Shown here one piece after another: positions 1 through 27,802 of a DNA stretch of 33,390 bases (position 1 is the stretch's first letter; each line of letters begins with the position of its first letter). The notes below the pieces were generated by a model. The model ran no database searches, was not told where the DNA came from, and saw only the letters and a list, made by a program, of their open reading frames with translations. Both the position numbers and the translations under genes were made by a program. Source of the stretch: an uncultured Bdellovibrionales bacterium (lineage in GTDB: Bacteria; Patescibacteriota; Minisyncoccia; Moranbacterales; UBA1568); assembly GCA_964515255.1 (NCBI GenBank), contig CAZETL010000002.1, forward strand, positions 1 to 33,390. Reading direction: 5' to 3'.

Positions 1-1976
1 TTCATCGGGCCGCACCTCCGGATTTAGATGGCTCTGTATTGCCGAGTACACAGGACTCGACTAACCCCGAGTCTTCATCACGACCATTTTCTGAACAACT
101 CGACGCCAAACAGGACTTGGCAGGAGCTCTCTCTCAGGATCCGGTTTCTAGCCCTCCTGTTCTTACCGAAGATGAAAAGCTTGAGCGTGAGAATATCAAG
201 GCGATAAAGTTTGCGGATGAAGAAGAAAAAAATTCTTCCTCATCCGTTGCGAAGGGATTGCCGTCCCGTCCAGATGACCTCGCGTCTGTACCCGCTTACT
301 TTATTCGTCCGGCCGAAGTGCCGCTTCCTTCTCGCCGGATGCCAAAGAAACGAAATTATTATTGGCAGCTGCCCCCGGTAGATCTTCTTGATGCGTCAAT
401 GGAGGCTGGGTTTGGTGGTGACACGGCTGCGCGCGCGGAGGTGATTCGGGATACGTTGGCGAATTTCGGCATCCAGGTTATTCCGAAGGAAATTAAAGAG
501 GGGCCCACGGTGACACAGTATACGTTTAGTCCGGCAAGCGGAGTGAAAGTATCCCGTATTTCAGCTCTTCAAAATGATCTTGCGCTCGCGCTTGCGGCGC
601 CCTCCATTCGCATTGAAGCGCCGATTCCCGGGAAGGCGCTCCTTGGCATAGAGGTTCCAAATCATACCTCGGCCATTGTCCGATTGAGGAATGTTTTTGA
701 AAGTCTTGCTTTCGTGAAGCGGGATCGCGAACCACCGCTGACCATTGCCCTCGGCAAGGACGTGTACGGCGAATATCGCGTGGCAAATCTTGCAAAGATG
801 CCGCATCTTCTCGTTGCTGGTGCCACGAATTCAGGGAAAAGCATTTTTATAAATACTCTTATCCTGTCGCTCTTGTATCAGAATTCTCCGGAAGATTTGC
901 AGTTGGTTCTTATTGACCCGAAGCGAGTTGAGCTTTCTCTGTACAATGGCATACCACATCTCGTTGCCCCGGTTATTGTCGAGGCAAAGAAAATGGTGAG
1001 CGCGCTTCGTCAGATGGGAGGAGAAATGGAACGACGATACAAGCTTCTTGAACAGGTTGGATCGAGGGACATTGCATCGTATCACAAGAGAGTTGAACGT
1101 GGGGAAAAACGGGAAGTATCGCTCCCGGGAGGGGGAACTCGCGAAGAGGATCTCCCGAAACTCCCGTATATCGTGATTGTCATCGATGAAATGGCTGATC
1201 TCATGATGGCGCATGGTCGGGAAGCAGAAGGGGCTATTGTTCGACTTGCTCAGATGTCACGGGCGGTTGGAATCCATCTTGTTCTCGCAACGCAGCGACC
1301 GAGTGTTGAGGTAATTACGGGCCTCATAAAGGCGAATATTGTAAGCAGAGTTTCCTTTCAGGTGGCGACGCAAATTGATTCCCGGACTATTCTTGATCAG
1401 GGTGGCGCCGAACGATTGCTTGGTCGGGGCGATATGCTGTTTTCTACGCCGGAGTATGCTCAGCCGCGTCGGCTCCAGGGAGCACTCGTGACAGAGGACG
1501 AGGTTGCGAGTGTGGTGCAGTTTCTTCGTGATCAGAAGGTGACGGCTGGGTATGAAGATCCGATAGGGGAAAATCTTGGCGACAGTGCGTTCCCCGAAAA
1601 AGAATTCGCTCTTCCGGAGTCGAATCGATCGGGAGGTGACCTCGAAGCTGCTCCAGTTGGTCCCGAACCGATGCGTCCCGAACGAGTCTCTGATGGAATG
1701 GTTTTTTCTCTTGACGATGATACTGAGAATGATGAGGACGGACGAGATCCCCGTTATGAGGAAGCGAGACAGGTGGTCTTGGAATTCGGAAAAGCTTCTA
1801 CATCGTTCTTGCAGCGTCGGATGGGTCTTGGCTATTCGCGTGCAGCAAAATTGGTCGATCTGCTTGAAGCGGACGGGATCATTGGTCCGGCAGACGGATC
1901 GAAGGCTCGCGAAGTATTCGGTACGAAGAAACCTTTGGAAGAAAGCGAACCCTCAATAGCGGAACAGAAAGAATAG
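1..1976 (+). CDS. ftsK: DNA translocase FtsK/SpoIIIE: linker, motor and gamma domain. The 5' end probably lies upstream of the window; the first in-window start is TTG at 39
   Basis: Walker A GATNSGKS, Walker B VIVIDEMADL, ATQRPS block, and a C-terminal winged-helix gamma domain (STSFLQRRMGLGYSRAAKLVDLLEADGIIGP). The frame stays open back to nt 3 and no N-terminal TM segments are visible in-window. Confidence 0.9.
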   Translation, partial: HRAAPPDLDGSVLPSTQDSTNPESSSRPFSEQLDAKQDLAGALSQDPVSSPPVLTEDEKLERENIKAIKFADEEEKNSSSSVAKGLPSRPDDLASVPAYFIRPAEVPLPSRRMPKKRNYYWQLPPVDLLDASMEAGFGGDTAARAEVIRDTLANFGIQVIPKEIKEGPTVTQYTFSPASGVKVSRISALQNDLALALAAPSIRIEAPIPGKALLGIEVPNHTSAIVRLRNVFESLAFVKRDREPPLTIALGKDVYGEYRVANLAKMPHLLVAGATNSGKSIFINTLILSLLYQNSPEDLQLVLIDPKRVELSLYNGIPHLVAPVIVEAKKMVSALRQMGGEMERRYKLLEQVGSRDIASYHKRVERGEKREVSLPGGGTREEDLPKLPYIVIVIDEMADLMMAHGREAEGAIVRLAQMSRAVGIHLVLATQRPSVEVITGLIKANIVSRVSFQVATQIDSRTILDQGGAERLLGRGDMLFSTPEYAQPRRLQGALVTEDEVASVVQFLRDQKVTAGYEDPIGENLGDSAFPEKEFALPESNRSGGDLEAAPVGPEPMRPERVSDGMVFSLDDDTENDEDGRDPRYEEARQVVLEFGKASTSFLQRRMGLGYSRAAKLVDLLEADGIIGPADGSKAREVFGTKKPLEESEPSIAEQKE

Positions 1977-2061
1977 GTATTGCTTTGCGCGCTATCCTCC
2001 AAGCTAAATCCGTGATATACTCCCGGTAGTTTTTGAAAACGTAAAAAAACAAAAAAACTCT

Positions 2062-2790
2062 ATGAAAAAAATAGCAAGAGGATCCGTTCTCGCATACTCT
2101 CTCATCCTGCTCAGCATTCTCCTTATTGTTTCTATCGGCATGATGTCGTCGTCCATTGTCGACCTCAAGTCTCTTTCATCAAACGATAACTCCGTCAACG
2201 CATTCCAAATCGCCGATTCCGGATCCCAGGCGATTGTTGCAAGCATTAAAAAAGATAACTCCGGAAACATTGGGGACCTCGCAACAAGAATGGGACTCTC
2301 TTGTTCAAACGGACTTGTTGAAAGTTCTCTCTTGAACGGGGCATACAAAGTTTCTTTCTACGGAGACGCGTCAACGGCTCCGCTTTCCTGCGCCGATACG
2401 CTCTCCGGAGTCACTTCGGTGAAATCGGTGGGAAGCTACCGTGACTCGGCTCGCGCGGTGAGCGTCGCGGTGGCGGCGGGGTGTAGCCAGCCGGGGGTTA
2501 TGGTGAAGGTGGCTAGTAACTCCGATTCCGCAAACTTCTCAAGCGGCGACTATGATAAGATTCGCGACTACACGAGAGATGTTTCGAACAAGATTGTCGG
2601 CATTCACTGCAACTACTCAACGGCGGAAGCGTTAAATTTCCACTATCCGATTCCGGCACAATTTCAAGTGGAAACATTTACGGCATCTGGGTTTGATTCT
2701 TTCTACTGCTCGCAGAGCACCGGAGTCTGCAAATTCGAATCGTCCAATTGTTCGAGTGGCTGGGCTGTGTATGGTATGTGTGCGGAATAG
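2062..2790 (+). CDS. Exported or membrane-anchored protein with a PilX-N / minor-pilin-like N-terminus and a Cys-rich C-terminal half
   Basis: N-terminus MKKIARGSVLAYSLILLSILLIVSIGMM followed by AFQIADSG resembles PilX_N-type N-termini. No canonical G|FTLxE prepilin cleavage site is present. There are 8 Cys, 5 of them in the last ~60 aa. Confidence 0.6.
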   Translation: MKKIARGSVLAYSLILLSILLIVSIGMMSSSIVDLKSLSSNDNSVNAFQIADSGSQAIVASIKKDNSGNIGDLATRMGLSCSNGLVESSLLNGAYKVSFYGDASTAPLSCADTLSGVTSVKSVGSYRDSARAVSVAVAAGCSQPGVMVKVASNSDSANFSSGDYDKIRDYTRDVSNKIVGIHCNYSTAEALNFHYPIPAQFQVETFTASGFDSFYCSQSTGVCKFESSNCSSGWAVYGMCAE

Positions 2791-2853
2791 AAGTATTGAT
2801 CCTGACCCCGCTTTTCTTGTTGCGGATAGGATCTGCATGATACCCAGAATTCA

Positions 2854-4566
2854 ATGAACGAAACGCGTGACAATATCTCCATCGTCCTTGCGGGGGCCGC
2901 TGGAAAAGGTGTGCAGACGGTCGAAGGTATGCTTCTCTCGATTTTGAATGAGGAGGGATACGTCGTTTTTGCGTCGAAAGAGTACATGTCGCGCGTCCGC
3001 GGTGGTTCGAATTCGACAGAGATCAGGGTGTCATCCGGTAATTCGCGGGCTTTCGTGAATAATGTCGACATATTCTTTCCGTTCGATCGGGCGGCGTTTG
3101 AACATATTCGGTCACGAGTGCATGAGAAGACGATTATTGTTGCCGATGAGAAATCGATGGTTGCCAGTTCTGATTATCGGATATTTCGTGCTCCGATATC
3201 GGGCATTGCTTCGGAACTTGGCAATGCTCTCTATGAAAATACAGTGGCAGCTGGCGTCGTACTTGGTCTTCTCGGCGCGGATATTTCCGGGCTCGACGGG
3301 TATATTCGGAATCGATTTTCTTCAAAGGGGGGATCTGTCATTGAGGGAAATATCGAAGCGGGACACCGAGGGTATAAACTTGGTGAGCATCTTGCGTATA
3401 CGGAAAATATTGGCATAAAGATAGCGGGTAACGCCTCTTTGAAAGACGTCGACAGGATACTTCTTGATGGCACCGAATCAATTGGTTTGGGCGCTCTTGC
3501 TGGCGGCTGCAACTTTATCGCTTCCTATCCGATGTCGCCCTCGACCGGAGTTCTCCAATTTCTCGCTCGCGAAGGAGAACGATTTGGGGTTGTCGTGGAA
3601 CAATCCGAAGACGAGATTGCGGCCGTTAATATGGGTCTCGGAGCTTCGTTTGCTGGTGCAAGATCGTTCGTGACAACTTCCGGTGGCGGATTTGCGCTCA
3701 TGTGCGAGGGAGTGTCTCTTGCTGGAATGATGGAACTCCCAATTGTGATTCATGTTGCTCAGCGGCCAGGGCCGGCAACCGGGCTTCCGACTCGGACTGA
3801 GCAAGGGGATCTTGATCTCGTGTTGTATGCGGGGCATGGAGAATTTCCTCGAGCGATTTTCGCTCCAGGAACGCATGAAGAAGCATTTGAGGTGACGCAA
3901 CAGGCGTTTAACATAGCGGAAAAATGGCAGTCCCCGATTTTTCTGCTCTCCGACCAGTATTTTCTTGATACTGTGAAAGCGGTGTCGAAAGATGACTTTG
4001 TCGTGCTTCCAGATATTCGGACCGTTATCGAGACGACGGAAGATTACCAGAGATACGCATATTCGGAAGACGGCGTTTCTCCGAGAGGAATTCCCGGGTG
4101 GGGTTCCGGCCTCGTGGTTTCCGATAGCGATGAGCATACCGAGGACGGACATTTGACGGAGCGTCTTGATACGAGGGTTCTTATGATGGAGAAGCGGATG
4201 CGGAAGCTTGACGGATTGGTTCGGGATGTCATGCCCCCTGTTTGGTTTGGGAAAGAAGAGGCGAAAATAACATGTGTCGGATGGGGATCAACATGCGGAG
4301 CAATACGGGAGGCGATTGAAAAATCCGGGCGCGATGATATCTCGCATCTTCATTTTCGGCAGGTGTATCCATTGCCGGGAAATCTAAAAGATTTCTTTAA
4401 AAATTCTGAGCGGATTATTGTCATTGAAAATAATTTTTCAGGGCAGTTCTCTGTTTTGCTTGAGAGGCACGGAGTTCGTGTGGATCAAAAGATACTAAAA
4501 TATACCGGCGAGCCATTTTCAGTGGAAGAAATTTCTCAGCATATAGCATCTTTTCCGGTCGTATGA
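2854..4566 (+). CDS. 2-oxoacid:ferredoxin (acceptor) oxidoreductase, alpha subunit (fused gamma-alpha type)
   Basis: N-terminal gamma-like block [13 protein letters not shown] and alpha-domain blocks [10 protein letters not shown] and [12 protein letters not shown]. The stop overlaps the beta-subunit start (ATGA). Confidence 0.88.
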
Positions 4567-20940: not shown

Positions 20941-21306
20941 ATGACGGCGCGAGAACTCATTATGGACACGTTGGCGTGCTCGCCGGAGCCGATATCGGCT
21001 CCGGAAATCCTGTGCCGCCTCGCTAGACGAAAAGTTTCTTTCAATAAGACGACGATTTATCGGGAATTGGAGACGCTTCGCAATAGCGGTTCGATTCGAG
21101 AAGTCTTCTTCCGAAACGACAAAGCGTTGTATGAGCTTCCAGGGGAACACCACCACCATCTTGTCTGTACATCTTGTGGGAATGTTCGGGACGTCGCTCC
21201 GAGGGAATCGTTCGCTGACGAAGAAAAGGAAATTCTGCGCCGCGAATCTTTCCTCGTGCTCGAGCATTCTCTGGAATTTTTCGGTCTATGCCGATCATGT
21301 CGATGA
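20941..21306 (+). CDS. Fur family transcriptional regulator (Zur-like)
   Basis: Winged-helix region TTIYRELETLRNSG, then HHHHLVCTSCG...CRSC metal sites. GGGAGGG SD lies 3 nt before ATG 20941. ATG 20902 is an alternative (near-leaderless) start. Confidence 0.8.
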   Translation: MTARELIMDTLACSPEPISAPEILCRLARRKVSFNKTTIYRELETLRNSGSIREVFFRNDKALYELPGEHHHHLVCTSCGNVRDVAPRESFADEEKEILRRESFLVLEHSLEFFGLCRSCR

Positions 21307-21334
21307 CAGCAGCTTCTCGCCAGAGCAGAAATCT

Positions 21335-22282
21335 ATGAAGAAAATAATGATATTTCTCGCGTTTGCGCTTGTGATGATTGCGGCTGTTTCTTTCGTATTT
21401 GTGCGGATGGAGGGGATTAAGATGCCAAAGAGCGGAGATGATGGTTTGAATGGTGGCGCGCGGATTACGATTGCAGCAAGCTTTTATCCGCTGTATTTTT
21501 TTGCTTCTCGAATTGGCGGAAGCAGGGCGGAGGTGTTGAACATGACTCCTTCCGGCGTGGAGCCGCATGACTACGAACTGACTCCAAAAGATATGGCGAA
21601 TATTGGCCGGAGCCGCCTCATTATCGTGAACGGCGGCGGCTTGGAACCGTGGAGCGACCGAATCGAAGGAATTGTTGATGCGTCGAAAACAAAGGTGATT
21701 GCGGCAGCTAACGGGGTTTTGACTCGAAAAGAAGAAGGTGGAGACGGGGCCGAGATTGATCCGCACGCGTGGCTCTCGCCGATAGTCGCTGGGTCTCTGG
21801 CGCAGAGTATTCTGGAGGGGTTCGTGGCCGTCGATCCTGGAAATGCGGAGGAGTATCGAAAAAATGCAAAAGCTCTCCAAGAGGAGCTGTCGATCCTTGA
21901 TGTCGAATATCGGGATGGGCTTGCTCATTGCGAGAGCCGGGATATTGTTACGGCTCACTCGGCATTCGGATACCTCGCCTCGTCGTACGGACTCCGGCAA
22001 ATGCCGATTGCGGGACTTTCTCCCGATGCGGAACCATCTCTCAAGGACCTTGGCAATATCGCGGCATTCGCAAGATCAAGCGGAGTAAGATATATTTTCT
22101 TTGAGAGCCTTTCGAGTCCGAAACTTGCTGAAGCGATTGCGAAGGAGGTTGGGGTTGGGACATTGGTCCTTAATCCGATCGAAGGATTGACTCCTGACGA
22201 AGAAGCCGCCGGCATGAATTATTTCTCGGAAATGCGCTCAAATCTTTCCCATTTACGCCAGGCACTTTCATGCATGAAGTAG
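21335..22282 (+). CDS. Metal (Zn/Mn-type, ZnuA/TroA cluster) ABC transporter substrate-binding protein
   Basis: N-terminal anchor MKKIMIFLAFALVMIAAVSFVFV with blocks EPHDYELTP and DPHAWLSP. The ORF-track start at 21131 overlaps the regulator. Confidence 0.8.
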   Translation: MKKIMIFLAFALVMIAAVSFVFVRMEGIKMPKSGDDGLNGGARITIAASFYPLYFFASRIGGSRAEVLNMTPSGVEPHDYELTPKDMANIGRSRLIIVNGGGLEPWSDRIEGIVDASKTKVIAAANGVLTRKEEGGDGAEIDPHAWLSPIVAGSLAQSILEGFVAVDPGNAEEYRKNAKALQEELSILDVEYRDGLAHCESRDIVTAHSAFGYLASSYGLRQMPIAGLSPDAEPSLKDLGNIAAFARSSGVRYIFFESLSSPKLAEAIAKEVGVGTLVLNPIEGLTPDEEAAGMNYFSEMRSNLSHLRQALSCMK

Positions 22283-23010
22283 ACCACACAAAAAATATCA
22301 TCGAGGTCAACGGAGTGAGCTTTTCCTATGATGGCAGGGTTGACGTCCTAAAGGACGTGTCTTTGAGTGTTCATCGCGGAGACTTCATCGGACTCGTTGG
22401 ATCAAATGGTTCCGGGAAGACAACGCTTCTCAAATTAATACTCGGGATTCTCGTTCCGAAGACTGGGAGCATCCGTTTGTTTGGTGAAGATATTGCTATA
22501 CTTCGCGATCGGAGTCGAATCGGATATGTGCCGCAGAAAGCATCGAGTTTTTACTTGAATTTTCCCGTTTCGGTTCGTGAAGCAGTTCTGATGGGGAGGT
22601 TTGGCAAGCGGGGATTGTTTCATCGGATGAAGTCGGAAGACTGGCTATTCGTTGACGACGTCCTTGCGAGAGTCAACATGGCATCGTTTGCTGATCGGCT
22701 TGTTGGCGAATTGTCTGGCGGACAGCAGCAGCGAGTTCTCATTGCGCGCGCACTTGCCTGTGAACCGGAAATTCTTTTCTTGGATGAGCCGACGACGGGC
22801 GTGGATCAATCCGGGGAGAATGAATTCTACGAATTGTTGAGAAGCTTGAACCGGAAGCTTGATATTACTCTGGTTTTGGTATCTCACGACATTGACCGAA
22901 TGGCGCGGGAAGCTATGCATCTTGTGTGCGTCGATCAAACGGTGAAATGCTATCTTTCTCCGGAAGAATATTTCGCAAGGCGCGGCGAAATCAACGAAAA
23001 AACCCTATGA
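22270..23010 (+). CDS. Metal ABC transporter ATP-binding protein (ZnuC-like)
   Basis: Walker A GSNGSGKTT, signature LSGGQQQR and Walker B ILFLDEPT. Confidence 0.88.
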   Translation: MHEVDHTKNIIEVNGVSFSYDGRVDVLKDVSLSVHRGDFIGLVGSNGSGKTTLLKLILGILVPKTGSIRLFGEDIAILRDRSRIGYVPQKASSFYLNFPVSVREAVLMGRFGKRGLFHRMKSEDWLFVDDVLARVNMASFADRLVGELSGGQQQRVLIARALACEPEILFLDEPTTGVDQSGENEFYELLRSLNRKLDITLVLVSHDIDRMAREAMHLVCVDQTVKCYLSPEEYFARRGEINEKTL

Positions 23011-23813
23011 GTTCCGATATATTGCAGATATTCCAGTACGGGTTCATCGTCCGCGGCATTGAAGCGGGCGTCATCGTCTCTCTTGTTGCGCCGCTCGTCG
23101 GAATTTTCCTTGTTTTGCGCCGCTATTCGCTTATTGCTGATACGCTTTCCCATGTCTCCCTTGCGGGCATTGCCGGCGGAATGCTCTTTGGCATACCGCC
23201 GGTTATCTCGGCGCTTGCGGCGGCTGTCGCCGCTTCTTTCGGGATCGAACGACTGAGAAATTCCCGGAGGCTCTCCGGCGAATCTGCACTCGCTTTATTT
23301 CTGTCGGGAAGCCTTGCACTCGCATTGATTCTCATTTCGCTCGCGCACGGTTTCAATGCGAATCTCTTCAGTTACCTTTTCGGGAGCGTCGTTACAGTGA
23401 CTAATCGGGACATTGTAGTGATCGCTGCTCTTTCGGTTGTAATTGTCGGTTTGATCGCTTTGTTTTACAAGGAGCTTGTCTATGTGACATTTGACGAGGA
23501 AGCTGCTCAAGTGAGCGGTATCCCGACTCGGCTCATCAATTCGGTTTTGATACTGCTTGCCGCTGTTCTTGTGGCTCTTGCTATCCCCGTTGTCGGAGTG
23601 CTCCTTATATCGGCGCTTATCGTGATTCCGGTCGTTTCGGCGCTCCAGTTCCGGACTGGATTTGCGCGGACGATCCTCATTGCCGAGAGTATATCGGTTT
23701 TCTCGGTTGTAACAGGAATCTTCACATCCTATTTTCTGGATCTCTCGACGGGCGGGACTATCGTGATCGTCATGCTGGCGATTTTCTCGGCGATATTTTT
23801 TTGGAAGCGGTGA
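23007..23813 (+). CDS. Metal ABC transporter permease (ZnuB-like, ABC-3 family)
   Basis: Polytopic membrane profile, with an ATGA overlap onto the ATPase stop. Confidence 0.82.
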   Translation: MSSDILQIFQYGFIVRGIEAGVIVSLVAPLVGIFLVLRRYSLIADTLSHVSLAGIAGGMLFGIPPVISALAAAVAASFGIERLRNSRRLSGESALALFLSGSLALALILISLAHGFNANLFSYLFGSVVTVTNRDIVVIAALSVVIVGLIALFYKELVYVTFDEEAAQVSGIPTRLINSVLILLAAVLVALAIPVVGVLLISALIVIPVVSALQFRTGFARTILIAESISVFSVVTGIFTSYFLDLSTGGTIVIVMLAIFSAIFFWKR

Positions 23814-23832: not shown

Positions 23833-24540
23833 CTATCGTCGGATCTCAACCGAAGGGAGTCTTCCAAGAAGGCGATCTCGTATTCGTTCGAGATTGAGCG
23901 ACTTCGATCTTGATTTTTCTGCAAGCGACGGATCAAAAATTTTCACGTCGCGGAATTCTTGGAGAGCGTAGCGGCGCGCACCCCGGATCCAATCCCCGAT
24001 TTCGTCGAAGTCTTCTTCTTCGTGGATGCCCGGGACCACCGTAGTGCGGAATTCGTAGTCGGCACCGCTTTCCATGATGAGGCGCGCGCTTTCTCGGAAT
24101 CGATCGATGGCGATATGGGGATTCCCGGAAGCAATCGAGTATTTTTCAGGGGCGTGCTTGATGTCCATCGCCCAGAAATCAATGAGATTCGTTTGCATGA
24201 GGAGCCGTACTTTTTCGGGGAAGGCGCCGTTTGTATCGAGTTTTACGAGGAAGCCGAGCGATTTTATTTCCCGGATAAATTCCTCGAGATCGGGCTGGAG
24301 CGTCGGTTCGCCGCCGGTGATGCAGACGCCGTCGAGTTTCCCTTGCCTCTTCTTGAGAAATTCGAGGAATTCGCCAGCTTTGTCGCCGCCTGTCTGCGCA
24401 AGATACTCATCGGTCGGCTCGATGAGTTCCGGATTGTGGCAGAACGGACACCGGAGGGCGCAGCCGATCGTAAAGGCGACGGAAGCGATTTTCCCGGGGT
24501 AGTCGAGGAGCGTGAGCGGATGGTATCCGGCGAGACGCAT
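23833..24540 (-). CDS. nrdG: Anaerobic ribonucleoside-triphosphate reductase activating protein (radical SAM)
   Basis: CALRCPFCHNPE (CxxxCxxC) cluster near the N-terminus, GGEPTLQ block, and nrd-locus context. Confidence 0.88.
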   Translation of the reverse strand: MRLAGYHPLTLLDYPGKIASVAFTIGCALRCPFCHNPELIEPTDEYLAQTGGDKAGEFLEFLKKRQGKLDGVCITGGEPTLQPDLEEFIREIKSLGFLVKLDTNGAFPEKVRLLMQTNLIDFWAMDIKHAPEKYSIASGNPHIAIDRFRESARLIMESGADYEFRTTVVPGIHEEEDFDEIGDWIRGARRYALQEFRDVKIFDPSLAEKSRSKSLNLERIRDRLLGRLPSVEIRR

Positions 24541-24544
24541 ATTC

Positions 24545-24573
24545 TTGACATGACTAGTTATCTGTGATAAAAT
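24545..24573 (+). promoter_or_regulatory. Near-consensus sigma70 promoter for the 81-aa ORF
   Basis: TTGACA (24545-24550), a 17-nt spacer, then TAAAAT (24568-24573). A GTTAGC-ATTCG-GCTAAC hairpin (24579-24595) lies in the predicted leader. Confidence 0.6.
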
Positions 24574-24614
24574 GGTAAGTTAGCATTCGGCTAACGGTGG
24601 CGTAGGAGGAAGTC

Positions 24615-24860
24615 ATGAGTCACAACGAATTTTCGATAGTACCGGGCGTATATCGGGCAGTAGTCTGCGCGCAAGACCTTACGCCAACAGGGATGATGGA
24701 CGCGGAAGTGATGATCTTCCCCGATGGAACCGGGAAGTTTATGTGTTCGCGGAACGGGATCGTATCTCAGTATCCGAACGTCCATATTCGTACGGATAGG
24801 GGCGAGGGATTGAGGGAGATTGTCCGCGTGGGAGTGAGGCTGAATATCGTCGATGATTGA
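24615..24860 (+). CDS. Hypothetical 81-aa protein forming an independent opposite-strand unit inside the nrd locus
   Basis: AGGAGG lies 5 nt upstream of the ATG. A TTGACA-17-TAAAAT promoter is at 24545-24573 and a hairpin plus T-run terminator at 24887-24930. Composition is more protein-like than the overlapping minus-strand ORF. Confidence 0.6.
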   Translation: MSHNEFSIVPGVYRAVVCAQDLTPTGMMDAEVMIFPDGTGKFMCSRNGIVSQYPNVHIRTDRGEGLREIVRVGVRLNIVDD

Positions 24861-24886
24861 CGAGGGATATTCAGCTATCAATTTCA

Positions 24887-24930
24887 AAGGACGGCATTAC
24901 TTATGTGTGCTGTCCTTCTTTATTTTCATT
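24887..24930 (+). terminator. Terminator between the convergent 81-aa ORF (+) and the glycyl-radical mini-ORF (-)
   Basis: AAGGACGGCA-(11 nt)-TGCTGTCCTT (one G.U pair) followed by CTTTATTTTCATTTTT. The T-run is strong only on the plus strand. Confidence 0.6.
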
Positions 24931-24958
24931 TTTACCCCCACATTTTCTCTCCGAATGG

Positions 24959-25210
24959 TCATGCTGCGCTCGGGATGTATTCGAGGCGGTCGCCATATTC
25001 CTGCTGCTTCCCTTTGTTCCACTGTTCGACGGGGCGGATATAGCCGACGACTCGAGTGTAGACTTCCGCTTTCTGGAAATCGGCGAGCGCGGGATTCATC
25101 TCGTGGCAGGAGCGGCATTTTGCAAAGGTTTCGCCGCTTGCCTCATAGGGCATATATTCCTCACCTTTCTTCAGTGTCTTTTCGCAATCGTGGCACGTTA
25201 TCGCTTGCAT
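24959..25210 (-). CDS. Free-standing NrdD C-terminal module: zinc ribbon plus glycyl-radical loop (83 aa)
   Basis: CHDC-x22-CRSC, then EVYTRVVGYIRPVEQWNKGKQQEYGDR. This matches the RVxGY..WN.GK..E glycyl-radical tail normally found at the C-terminus of NrdD. Confidence 0.75.
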   Translation of the reverse strand: MQAITCHDCEKTLKKGEEYMPYEASGETFAKCRSCHEMNPALADFQKAEVYTRVVGYIRPVEQWNKGKQQEYGDRLEYIPSAA

Positions 25211-25301
25211 ACTCTTTTTGTTAGAGATTATTTTTTACATTTTTTGGCGGCGTGGAGGGATGTTTTTTTAAGAAAATCTTGGCAGCTTGCTCCTGAGTGA
25301 T

Positions 25302-25604
25302 TCATCTGGGAATCTCTTCCCACTGTACCCCTGATTCAAACGCATTCACATCCTCTTCGTATTGTTCGCGCGTTGCTCGAATGGTTATCGAATCAATATG
25401 CAATTTTGTTCCATGCATGTCCAGAAGTGCTTTCGCCTCCCTTGCTTTATTGACGCCGACCCAGTTGGCAACTATTGAGAAACGAGCGGAGGGATTTCTT
25501 CTAATTCTTTCTCGCAAAGAAGAAACAAAACTTCCGAAATCCACCTTGTTAAATTCTACGCCGAGTTCGAGCGGGAGCTCTTTTTCGGCGGGAATTCTTT
25601 CCAT
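25302..25604 (-). CDS. Hypothetical 100-aa protein inserted between the two NrdD pieces
   Basis: Own AAGGA SD upstream of the ATG. No Cys, and no HNH, GIY-YIG or LAGLIDADG motif that I recognised. Confidence 0.55.
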   Translation of the reverse strand: MERIPAEKELPLELGVEFNKVDFGSFVSSLRERIRRNPSARFSIVANWVGVNKAREAKALLDMHGTKLHIDSITIRATREQYEEDVNAFESGVQWEEIPR

Positions 25605-25637
25605 AAGTTTTTCCTTACCAATTATTTTTTTGAATTT

Positions 25638-27737
25638 TTACGCTTTCTTATACTCTTTCGCGGTTGGCGCTGCTACGCACTTCGGACAAGTCTTGTGTTC
25701 GCCGGGGAGATAGCCGTGCGCGGGGCAAACGCTGAAGGTCGGAGACAGCGTGAAGTAAGGAAGGCGGTATTTCTCGGCGATTCTCTTGACGAGCGTTTTC
25801 GCAAGCGCGGGATCATTGATGCGCTCCCCGAGGAATCCGTGGAGAACCGTTCCTCCGGTGTATTGCGTCTGGAGATTATCCTGGAGGTCGAGCGCTTCGA
25901 AGATGTCGTCGGTAAAGCCGACGGGGAGATGGGAGGAATTGGTGTAGTACGGTTCGGCGTGTTTTGTTTTCACTTCCCGATCATTCGCGACGGTGATATC
26001 GGGGTATTTCTTCATATCGAGAAGCGCGAGCCGGTACGCGGTTCCTTCAGCCGGAGTCGCTTCGAGATTAAAGAGATTATTCGTCTTCTCCTGGTAATTT
26101 CCGATTCGTTCGCGCATATGCGTGAGGAGTCGCTCTGCAAACGATTGTCCCTTGGAAGTCGTGATGTCGGTTTTGAGGAGATTTCGGATCGCTTCATTGG
26201 TGCCGACGAGTCCGATGGTGCTGAAGTGATTCTTCCAGAATTGTTGGAACCGCTTCTTTACATTCGACAAATAGAACTTCGTATAGGGATACAGACCCTT
26301 TTCAGTGAGGCCTTCAACTACCTTCCGTTTTATTTCGAGGCTTTCTTTCGCAATATCCATGAGCCGATCCAGGCGTTTGAAGAAATCCTTTTCATTTTTC
26401 GCGAGGTATCCAATGCGCGGAAGATTGAGCGTGACGACTCCGATTGAGCCGGTAAGGGGGTTTGCGCCGAAAAGTCCGCCGCCGCGGCGGCGGAGCTCGC
26501 GATTGTCGAGCCGGAGTCGGCAGCACATGCTTCGCGCGTCGTCAGGGCTCATGTCGGAGTTTACGAAATTGGCAAAGTAGGGAATGCCGTATTTCGCAGT
26601 CATTTCCCAGAGCGGCGCGTGCGCCGGATTGTTCCAGTCGAAGTCCTTCGTGATGTTGTAGGTCGGGATAGGGAACGTGAAAATGCGGCCCGATGAATCG
26701 CCTTCGCACATGACCTCCGCAAAAGCGCGATTGATCATCGCCATCTCAGCAGCAAAATCGCCGTAGGTTTCTTTCTGCGGTTCGCCGCCGATAATGACAT
26801 GCTCGCTGGAGAGGATTTTCGGCGGAATGAGATCAAGCGTGATATTCGAGAACGGCGTCTGGAATCCGACGCGCGTCGAAACGTTCATGTTGAAGACGAA
26901 AGATTGAATCTCCTGCTTTACTTGTCGATACGAAAGTTTGTCATACCGGACGAAAGGAGCGAGCAATGTGTCGAAGTTGGAAAATGCCTGTGCGCCCGCG
27001 ACTTCGCCTTGGAGCGTATAGATGAACTTCACCATTTGCCCAAGTGCCGATCCGAGGTGTTTTGCTGGTTTGCACGAGACTTTGCCGGGGACGCCGGTGA
27101 AGCCGCGACGGAGGAGATCTTCCAGATCCCAGCCACAGCAATAGGCGGAGATGAGTTGGAGATCGTGGATATGGAGATCGCCCGATTCATGGGCTTCGCG
27201 GACTTCTTTCGGATAAATCCGATTCATCCAGTATTTCGTGCTGATTGCAGAAGAGACGTAGTTATTGAGTCCTTGCAAAGAATACGCCATATTGGCGTTT
27301 TCTTTCACGAGCCAGTCGAGATTGCCGATATATTTATCGACAAGATGGACAGCTTTGACGAGAGACTCTTCCGCTTCTCGTGTCTCTCGATGTTGTTCGC
27401 GGTAGAGAATATACGCTTTTGCCGTCTCGTGGTATCCCTCGGACATGAGGACGGTTTCGACGAGGTCCTGAATCTCTTCGATCTTTGGGATGAATTTCCC
27501 GAGGTTTTGTTTTGCGTATCGGCGGGACTTTTGCTCCAGAAGCGACACGACTTTTTTGCCGAGGCGAGGGGCTTCTTTTTCTGTTCCTGCTTGCGTCGCG
27601 GAGAGGGCTTTTTCGATGGCGTTCGCAATTTTGTACGGGTTGAATGGCACGGTTCGACCGCTTCGCTTTCGCACGGATTCGACCGATGCTTTTTCTTTTT
27701 GTTTGAGAGATTTTTTCGTTGCCATACCTTTTTTCAT
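25638..27737 (-). CDS. nrdD: Anaerobic ribonucleoside-triphosphate reductase (class III) large piece: ATP-cone, barrel and zinc site, lacking the glycyl-radical loop
   Basis: ATP-cone VRKRSGRTVPFNPYKIANAIEKAL. NrdD-like blocks TFPIPTYN, MCCRLRLD, YYTNSSHLPV and QTQYTGGTVLHGFLGE. The protein ends ...CPAHGYLPGEHKTCPKCVAAPTAKEYKKA*. GTG 27773 and ATG 27725 are alternative starts. Confidence 0.88.
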   Translation of the reverse strand: MKKGMATKKSLKQKEKASVESVRKRSGRTVPFNPYKIANAIEKALSATQAGTEKEAPRLGKKVVSLLEQKSRRYAKQNLGKFIPKIEEIQDLVETVLMSEGYHETAKAYILYREQHRETREAEESLVKAVHLVDKYIGNLDWLVKENANMAYSLQGLNNYVSSAISTKYWMNRIYPKEVREAHESGDLHIHDLQLISAYCCGWDLEDLLRRGFTGVPGKVSCKPAKHLGSALGQMVKFIYTLQGEVAGAQAFSNFDTLLAPFVRYDKLSYRQVKQEIQSFVFNMNVSTRVGFQTPFSNITLDLIPPKILSSEHVIIGGEPQKETYGDFAAEMAMINRAFAEVMCEGDSSGRIFTFPIPTYNITKDFDWNNPAHAPLWEMTAKYGIPYFANFVNSDMSPDDARSMCCRLRLDNRELRRRGGGLFGANPLTGSIGVVTLNLPRIGYLAKNEKDFFKRLDRLMDIAKESLEIKRKVVEGLTEKGLYPYTKFYLSNVKKRFQQFWKNHFSTIGLVGTNEAIRNLLKTDITTSKGQSFAERLLTHMRERIGNYQEKTNNLFNLEATPAEGTAYRLALLDMKKYPDITVANDREVKTKHAEPYYTNSSHLPVGFTDDIFEALDLQDNLQTQYTGGTVLHGFLGERINDPALAKTLVKRIAEKYRLPYFTLSPTFSVCPAHGYLPGEHKTCPKCVAAPTAKEYKKA

Positions 27738-27802
27738 GGAGAAAAGAAAAACCGTGGAAATCTTCTCCCCCACGGAGTGCGCGCTTCGAAGGGCGCCTCC
27801 CC

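Follow-up and report, generated by a model that had tools for sequence, protein, structure and literature searches.

The stretch of DNA analysed here, hereafter the window, comprises 33,390 nucleotides (nt) of contig CAZETL010000002.1 (assembly GCA_964515255.1), for which the nearest named relatives are Candidatus Moraniibacteriota (Patescibacteria/candidate phyla radiation). It carries genes for a class III ribonucleotide reductase (RNR), with the catalytic protein NrdD encoded in two pieces. Judged by sequence, the system has all tested features of a class III RNR but one: the radical loop is not on the larger piece, an open reading frame (ORF) of 711 amino acids (aa), but on a second chain. 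This second chain, here called the mini-protein, is encoded by an ORF of 83 aa and comprises the glycyl-radical loop (EVYTRVVGYIRPV) together with a four-Cys ribbon of its own. The features of the locus are listed below by their positions in the window.

25638-27773, minus strand: nrdD, 711-aa ORF read from GTG (ORF calls, Pfam/NCBIfam matches)
27384-27677, minus strand: ATP-cone, residues 33-130 of the 711-aa ORF (Pfam PF03477, E 1.1e-22)
26517-26528, minus strand: finger-loop MCCR, M416-C417-C418-R419 (sequence reading, alignment with relatives)
25677-25727, minus strand: zinc site of the large subunit, C683-P-A-H686, x9, C696-P-K-C699 (sequence reading)
25302-25604, minus strand: conserved hypothetical ORF of 100 aa between nrdD and the mini-protein gene (homologue search)
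24959-25210, minus strand: 83-aa glycyl-radical mini-protein with four-Cys ribbon, Gly loop and C-terminal helix (Pfam NRDD 510-562, AlphaFold2 model)
25106-25195, minus strand: zinc ribbon of the mini-protein, C6, C9, C32, C35 (alignment, model)
25043-25045, minus strand: Gly56 codon, predicted radical site in RVVGY (alignment, model)
24615-24860, plus strand: 81-aa ORF of no family, between the mini-protein gene and nrdG (gene calls in the related contigs L086 and L089)
23833-24540, minus strand: nrdG, 235-aa radical-SAM activase of class III RNR (TIGR02495)

The two gene products

The 711-aa ORF matches Pfam NRDD (PF13597) over model positions 1-528 of 562 (E 2.6e-185, 617.8 bits). It also scores far above the cut-offs of the NCBIfam models PRK08270 (positions 3-649 of 684, 1038.5 bits vs a cut-off of 548) and TIGR02487 (528.6 bits vs 326), and it aligns to residues 100-612 of the Thermotoga maritima NrdD structure. 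Profile and structure alignments both indicate that the barrel is complete. The ATG at 27737 is the more probable start; it is the one called in L086, a nearly identical contig, and gives a protein of 699 aa. The finger loop reads SMCCRLRL (residues 415-422), and its MCCR is invariant in the relatives included in an alignment of the large subunit, linker and mini-protein from 11 loci (alignment A2). The double-cysteine MCCR and MGCR represent separate classes of finger-loop motifs (PMC9669993); the MCCR of the window is predicted to hold the thiyl-radical cysteine. The associated activase NrdG matches TIGR02495 (NrdG2) at E 8e-59 and 198 bits (cut-off 131).

The large chain terminates early. 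The zinc site CPAH-x9-CPKC is invariant in truncated as well as intact relatives, and 12 residues past this CxxH-x9-CxxC site the chain stops (tail CPAHGYLPGEHKTCPKCVAAPTAKEYKKA); the C-terminus ...SVCPAHGYLPGEHKTCPKCVAAPTAKEYKKA is followed by a TAA codon at 25638-25640. The motif [RK][VILA]xG[YF] was found nowhere in the 711-aa ORF, and no Gly is present among the last 12 residues, which follow the zinc site.

The mini-protein matches the C-terminal end of the Pfam NRDD model (positions 510-562 of 562, E 3.3e-12, 46.3 bits vs a cut-off of 26.2). On T. maritima NrdD, the small-family profile falls on residues 607-644, which represent the Gly loop. PF01228, the Gly_radical domain of the pyruvate formate-lyase type, is absent among the Pfam matches of the mini-protein at E up to 1. 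The sequence reads MQAITCHDC-x22-CRSCHE...AEVYTRVVGYIRPVEQWNKGKQQEYGDR, the order being C6HDC9, 22 residues, C32RSC35, and then EVYTRVVGYIRPVEQWNKGKQQEYGDR. All four Cys as well as R53, G56 and Y57 are invariant across 140 aligned mini-proteins. An AlphaFold2 model computed from this 140-sequence alignment has a mean predicted local distance difference test score (pLDDT) of 81.7, compared to 61 for an earlier model. It shows a three-stranded beta-ribbon in which the four Cys lie (residues 4-32), then a short helix, two short strands on either side of Gly56 (49-51 and 58-60), and a second helix (66-73). In solved glycyl-radical enzymes, the radical glycine is located at the tip of a hairpin, and the modelled placement of Gly56 is in agreement with this position.

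Residues 32-36 form a CxxCH motif, and weak matches to c-type cytochromes were obtained (Pfam E 0.03-0.1; TIGR01904 E 4.7e-4). A sequence search of the PDB with the mini-protein alone likewise returned weak matches to cytochromes c7/c3 through CxxCH (E 0.16-0.7). Heme binding is nevertheless unlikely and was rejected: the four Cys never vary, whereas many homologues have Tyr or Phe in place of the His of this motif.

The first-pass annotation of the window had been made from the DNA letters alone. Its coordinates and sequences, the assignment of the Gly56 codon, and the absence of RVxGY from the 711-aa ORF are all correct. It had further anticipated that the large ORF would match NrdD as far as the zinc site and the 83-aa ORF the far C-terminus, and this is what the profile matches and the structure alignment returned. 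Its distance of about 430 bp between the pieces was accurate (427 nt), but the conserved 100-aa ORF inside this interval had been overlooked.

Integrity of the split locus

A sequencing or assembly error, with a frameshift or chimera in one continuous nrdD, is the least probable of the explanations considered. All that speaks for it is how often metagenome assemblies contain such errors in general, and it has been refuted by independent data. Five assemblies from other samples (L086, L087, L089, L090, L091) show gap-free colinearity with the window at 98.3-99.96% identity, and L090 covers the end of nrdD, its stop codon, the 100-aa ORF and the mini-protein gene. A sixth contig (L088), not placeable by exact seed, carries the same mini-protein gene. 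About 20 related genomes share the layout, and the mini-protein carries a domain that is missing from continuous NrdDs. The split is not an artefact.

In the window, the 427 nt between nrdD and the mini-protein gene are occupied by the 100-aa ORF, and the large and the mini ORF are in different frames. In 20 related loci, the nrdD stop codon is TAA or TAG, the spacer has 9-136 nt, and the frames are mixed; the mini ORF always begins at an ATG 4-6 codons before CHDC.

The first-pass annotation had proposed, as one of two possibilities, a split generated by a mobile element. The analogy was with Aeromonas phage Aeh1, the class Ia NrdA of which is reportedly split by the homing-endonuclease gene mobE. 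Stated more broadly, a homing endonuclease, intron or intein would have made the split, or splicing, readthrough or frameshifting would undo it. The presence of the 100-aa ORF between the pieces could be taken in this sense, as could the finding that the two ORFs share a frame in 11 of the 20 related loci (classes A and B, see below), compared to about 7 expected. This excess may go back to an in-frame tandem duplication by which the glycyl-radical domain first gave rise to the family. Stop-codon readthrough, to which it also drew attention, was rejected for the window on account of the TAA stop, the ORF lying in between and the two different frames.

We regard such an origin or repair of the split as very improbable. 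Rfam reports no intron across the window at gathering scores, nor, with the limit relaxed to E 10, within 24500-26000. Pfam and NCBIfam find no nuclease or intein domain in the 100-aa ORF (the one match, to DUF6967, is weak, E 0.036), and the ORF is absent from every other split locus surveyed. It belongs to a family of 20 homologous clusters (54-100% identity, about 100 aa each, one from a named Moraniibacteriota), and three sampled homologues are located in three unrelated neighbourhoods. Because the ORF lacks a nuclease, is absent elsewhere and has homologues in unrelated contexts, a mobile-element origin of the split is not supported; at the window locus, no mobile element is involved, which distinguishes it from Aeh1 NrdA. 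On this comparative evidence, the 100-aa ORF is best described as a lineage-specific insertion, a bystander which is no part of the enzyme. As to recoding, the differing frames in the window, the TAA and TAG stops, and gaps down to 9 nt in the related loci argue against it. Unsplit enzymes read CPxC-(4-10 residues)-EVYSRVVGY directly and have no counterpart of the N-terminal ribbon of the mini-protein, so that removal of the spacer would not restore a canonical NrdD.

Distribution of the mini-protein and its genomic setting

One genome per GTDB species was scanned with the mini-protein alignment, and the loci were classified by a script using ORFs and phmmer. The mini-protein has 39 homologous clusters (48-94% identity, all of 64-108 aa). 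The loci were assigned to the following classes.

Class A: NrdD truncated just past CPxC, mini-protein, nrdG, as in the window; 11 surveyed loci and the complete genome L006
Class B: NrdD with an intact EVYSRVVGYIRPV loop, downstream mini-protein, nrdG; 9 loci
Class C: lone mini-protein, nrdD and nrdG both absent within 4 kb; found in Saccharibacteria, Desulfobacterales and other metagenome-assembled genomes
Class D: NrdD that stops behind its zinc site, next to it a downstream loop-only ORF of 44-63 aa without ribbon; 5 loci

The layout nrdD-mini-nrdG recurs in about 20 independent genomes, and this order is kept wherever the sequence of a class A, B or D locus extends far enough downstream. 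Several class A tails are recognisable as decayed remains of the loop (AEVYSVGLMEL in L004, TEVFLKVGEE in L020, STVYLKVVMAD in L008). Two genomes of class C also hold an intact NrdD elsewhere (L025 with L067, L029 with L082). In class D (L059, L068, L075, L077, L085), the short ORF is preceded by a clear Shine-Dalgarno sequence in three of the five loci (L059, L068, L077). Loop-only proteins of 45-60 aa resembling those of class D are numerous (e.g. P0149, P0169, P0172-P0174).

In a neighbour-joining tree of the barrels, class A, class B and unsplit forms are interleaved within a Moraniibacteriota-like clade. As far as can be judged from this unbootstrapped tree, several separate losses of the built-in loop are suggested. 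When the mini-protein loops of class B are compared to built-in loops, that of the NrdD from the same locus ranks first in 5 of 9 loci and third or better in all 9. These loops thus most resemble the loop of their own NrdD, which is not expected of an old duplication that evolved independently. Their resemblance would fit gene conversion, or a loop that has co-evolved with a single barrel and its activase. Of 31 residues in the loop of the window mini-protein, 20-24 are identical in the built-in loops of the closest relatives with an unsplit NrdD, and 10 in that of T. maritima.

The main inference of the first-pass annotation was a separately translated radical domain with its own complete ribbon, so that each piece has a zinc site, perhaps comparable to GrcA/YfiD, and it had suggested to look for the same split in related genomes. 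Both the recurrence of the layout and the occurrence of intermediates with intact NrdD, of loop relics and of stand-alone mini-proteins support this.

In a profile search of 1.84 billion representative proteins, 4257 matches reached E <= 1e-3, of which 627 reached E <= 1e-10. Lengths among the best 150 of the 4257 matches are 42-159 aa throughout. The full CxxC...CxxC...[RK]xxGY architecture is found in 139 of 187 short proteins collected. Pfam, NCBIfam and PHROGs contain no curated model for the mini-proteins and match them only as the last approximately 50 positions of NrdD models. About 21 of the 187 short proteins end in a Cys pair (CC, CxC, CxSC), as exemplified by P0014-P0019, P0025, P0036 and P0037 in alignment A1, and such a tail is also seen on the large subunit of L016. 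These tails recall the redox-shuttle tails of class I and II RNRs. The mini-protein of the window does not have one.

Part of the family is encoded by phages (loci surveyed in IMG/VR are labelled L095-L149). In 45 of 61 profile-matching loci from IMG/VR, a stand-alone ribbon-plus-loop or loop-only ORF occurs with no NrdD barrel or NrdG within 4 kb. Neighbours in six sampled loci include head maturation protease, minor head protein, small terminase, endolysin, RNA ligase and endonuclease VII. Among GenBank phage records, tblastn gave only two matches. The archaeal virus ANMV-1 (KP703175.1, L156:3237-3671) has a 144-aa coding sequence of mini-protein architecture annotated as "anaerobic ribonucleoside triphosphate reductase", and the paper describing this virus took the gene for an oxygen-sensitive RNR (PMC4372165). 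To go by its sequence, the product cannot be a reductase. It is probable from the sequence data that the phage-borne mini-proteins represent an auxiliary gene for the deoxyribonucleoside triphosphate (dNTP) supply of the host. The occurrence of mini-proteins away from nrdD and on phage contigs fits a module which acts in trans.

Mini-proteins without NrdD or NrdG nearby, in phages and distant loci, could also be read differently: as a regulator or decoy which competes for NrdG, or which stores or quenches the radical, thereby tuning RNR or another glycyl-radical enzyme. The extra ribbon, which has no counterpart in unsplit enzymes, could be taken in the same sense. We consider this improbable, as it leaves unexplained how the loop-less NrdD of the window lineage works and why mini-protein loops are similar to the loop of their own NrdD.

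The neighbourhood of the split locus consists of chromosomal housekeeping genes (FtsK, pyruvate:ferredoxin oxidoreductase, TGT, aminoacyl-tRNA synthetases, ZnuABC, and an ADP-forming acyl-CoA synthetase), and the neighbouring genes are those of a fermentative anaerobe. An operon for zinc uptake of the ZnuA/ZnuC/ZnuB type (window 21131-23813, plus strand) converges on nrdG. Its location beside an enzyme that would now need two zinc ribbons per protomer may be a coincidence. The adjacency of the mini-protein gene and nrdG, which is otherwise conserved, is broken in the window by the 81-aa ORF on the plus strand, for which there is no Pfam family match. Ahead of this ORF, positions 24545-24573 resemble a promoter, agreeing with TTGACA-17-TAAAAT at 11/12 positions and including the TG of an extended -10. 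A 98-aa ORF on the minus strand (24591-24887) was taken as non-coding, given that it has no family and an odd composition and that gene callers favour the 81-aa ORF on the opposite strand.

Proposed function and its implications

With a probability of about 75%, we consider that the window codes for a two-gene class III RNR, in which an autonomous glycyl-radical module similar to GrcA/YfiD has become the obligatory radical subunit in this lineage. The large protein would contribute the ATP-cone, the structural zinc site, and a ten-stranded barrel that bears the MCCR finger loop. The 83-aa protein would be a free-standing copy of the whole glycyl-radical domain of NrdD, consisting of zinc ribbon, RVVGY loop and tail helix. 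NrdG would use S-adenosylmethionine and abstract hydrogen from Gly56 of the mini-protein. The ribbon adjoining the loop is probably required for radical generation, like the zinc site in single-chain NrdD, where this requirement is known from mutagenesis of the T4 and E. coli enzymes. The loop of the mini-protein would then enter the vacant slot of the barrel beside Cys417/418, and radical transfer and nucleotide reduction would follow in the manner of canonical NrdD, with thioredoxin as the reductant expected for the MCCR type. In P. copri NrdD, the glycyl-radical domain is reportedly highly mobile and moves largely as a rigid body (PMC11226230), which makes delivery in trans plausible.

As to its evolution, a spare radical domain, autonomous in the manner of GrcA/YfiD, would have arisen beside an intact nrdD. 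Once this spare served in trans, the built-in loop would have become dispensable and would have decayed, apparently several times. Oxygen cleaves glycyl-radical enzymes at the radical glycine; YfiD replaces the piece lost from pyruvate formate-lyase, and Y06I of phage T4 does the same job (PMC8683613, PMC13450708). A plausible benefit of the two-gene arrangement is that such a cleavage would cost a 9-kDa consumable and spare the 80-kDa barrel. The barrel would be genetically "pre-cleaved", and the mini-protein both obligatory and cheap to replace.

E. coli GrcA/YfiD and T4 Y06I are similar to the mini-protein in being small stand-alone glycyl-radical domains, which in the case of the mini-protein would presumably be activated by the radical-SAM activase of the partner enzyme and act in trans; in both cases, cellular and phage-encoded versions exist. 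However, the mini-protein corresponds to the C-terminus of NRDD (PF13597) and does not match PF01228, and hence does not belong to the GrcA/YfiD family. The N-terminal half, disordered in YfiD, is replaced in the mini-protein by a four-Cys zinc ribbon, and the partner of the mini-protein is a ribonucleotide reductase, which in the window has no loop. As this partner is genetically loop-less, the mini-protein would be obligatory rather than a rescue device. With the single-chain NrdDs and their NrdG from T4, E. coli, T. maritima and P. copri, the window system shares the ATP-cone, barrel, MCCR, zinc site, RVxGY and the adjacent NrdG; it differs in having the loop on a second polypeptide, which brings a second zinc ribbon.

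Other enzymes are assembled from several chains. Benzylsuccinate synthase (alpha-beta-gamma) and 4-hydroxyphenylacetate decarboxylase combine a large glycyl-radical barrel with small Cys-rich metal-binding subunits. In these, the radical glycine is on the large subunit, whereas it would be on the small one in the window system. A split catalytic subunit is found in the class II RNR NrdJa/NrdJb from Pseudomonas aeruginosa (PMC9669993). As in NrdJa/NrdJb and in the NrdA from Aeh1, the catalytic component is specified by two genes, the products of which must assemble. Those are cases of simple fission, whereas the small piece in the window is a duplicated and remodelled domain that is also found beside intact enzymes.

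An alternative that has to be weighed is that the truncated nrdD is a non-functional relic. The mini-protein would then be an accessory spare or the partner of another enzyme, with dNTPs being obtained from another RNR or by salvage. This is compatible with the coexistence of mini-proteins and intact NrdDs in many genomes, and our view of this genome is confined to the window. Also, the truncated nrdD from the complete genome L006 (CP064994.1) is affected in that assembly by two single-base frameshifts (1512-3822). These are likely consensus or assembly errors, given 80-83% identity to the window across all three pieces, but they could be real; the 3' end of the mini-protein gene in this genome (about 4240) also looks shifted. 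The truncated barrels are about 70% identical to one another, with intact ATP-cone and with finger loop and zinc site invariant across the 11 loci. When the window is compared to L086, the ratio of nonsynonymous to synonymous substitution rates (dN/dS) is 0.05 for the barrel and 0.17 for the mini-protein (12 substitutions), values which rest on 12-13 substitutions each. The operon with nrdG has been retained in every truncated locus with downstream sequence, and the truncated form apparently arose several times and persisted. We thus consider a relic unlikely, although it is the strongest of the alternatives.

Several points weigh against a two-gene enzyme with an obligatory radical subunit. 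Besides the frameshifts in L006 and the small number of substitutions behind the dN/dS values, the barrel tree is without bootstrap support. A Foldseek search of the PDB with both models of the mini-protein gave no significant match, only generic zinc ribbons (eL24/Rlp24, eS27, TRASH) at E >= 0.07. NrdD chains do not appear in this output, probably because the domain is a small part of chains with 650-740 aa. We infer the function of the mini-protein in trans from genomics as its sole basis, and we assume that the organism depends on the RNR from the window. Finally, two zinc ribbons must fit one protomer.

To date, spare-part proteins have been validated for pyruvate formate-lyase only, and their existence for other glycyl-radical enzymes is described as an open question in reviews from 2021 and June 2026 (PMC8683613, PMC13450708). 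The first-pass annotation knew of no comparable split class III RNR; in agreement with this, no description was found in the literature on split NrdD, autonomous cofactors of NrdD, a separate class III radical domain, or anaerobic RNR of Patescibacteria. With somewhat less confidence than for the two-gene RNR itself, we lean towards a broader interpretation. There would be a large, undescribed and partly phage-borne family of NrdD-type spare parts, which has become the sole radical-bearing, exchangeable subunit in several lineages of Moraniibacteriota, including that of the window. These would be the first spare parts beyond pyruvate formate-lyase, and the RNR of the window would be the first glycyl-radical enzyme with its radical Gly on a small subunit that is exchangeable and can be discarded once oxygen has damaged it.

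For annotation, it follows that short ORFs labelled "anaerobic ribonucleoside-triphosphate reductase" are not reductases, and that NrdDs without the glycine are not automatically pseudogenes. The loci provide a concrete, clonable candidate for a spare part of class III RNR and make the open question directly testable. Intact NrdD with mini-protein, loop-less NrdD with mini-protein, and loop-only micro-proteins form a natural series in which activation and delivery in trans can be tested. The outcome would have a bearing on how strict anaerobes with tiny genomes survive pulses of oxygen.

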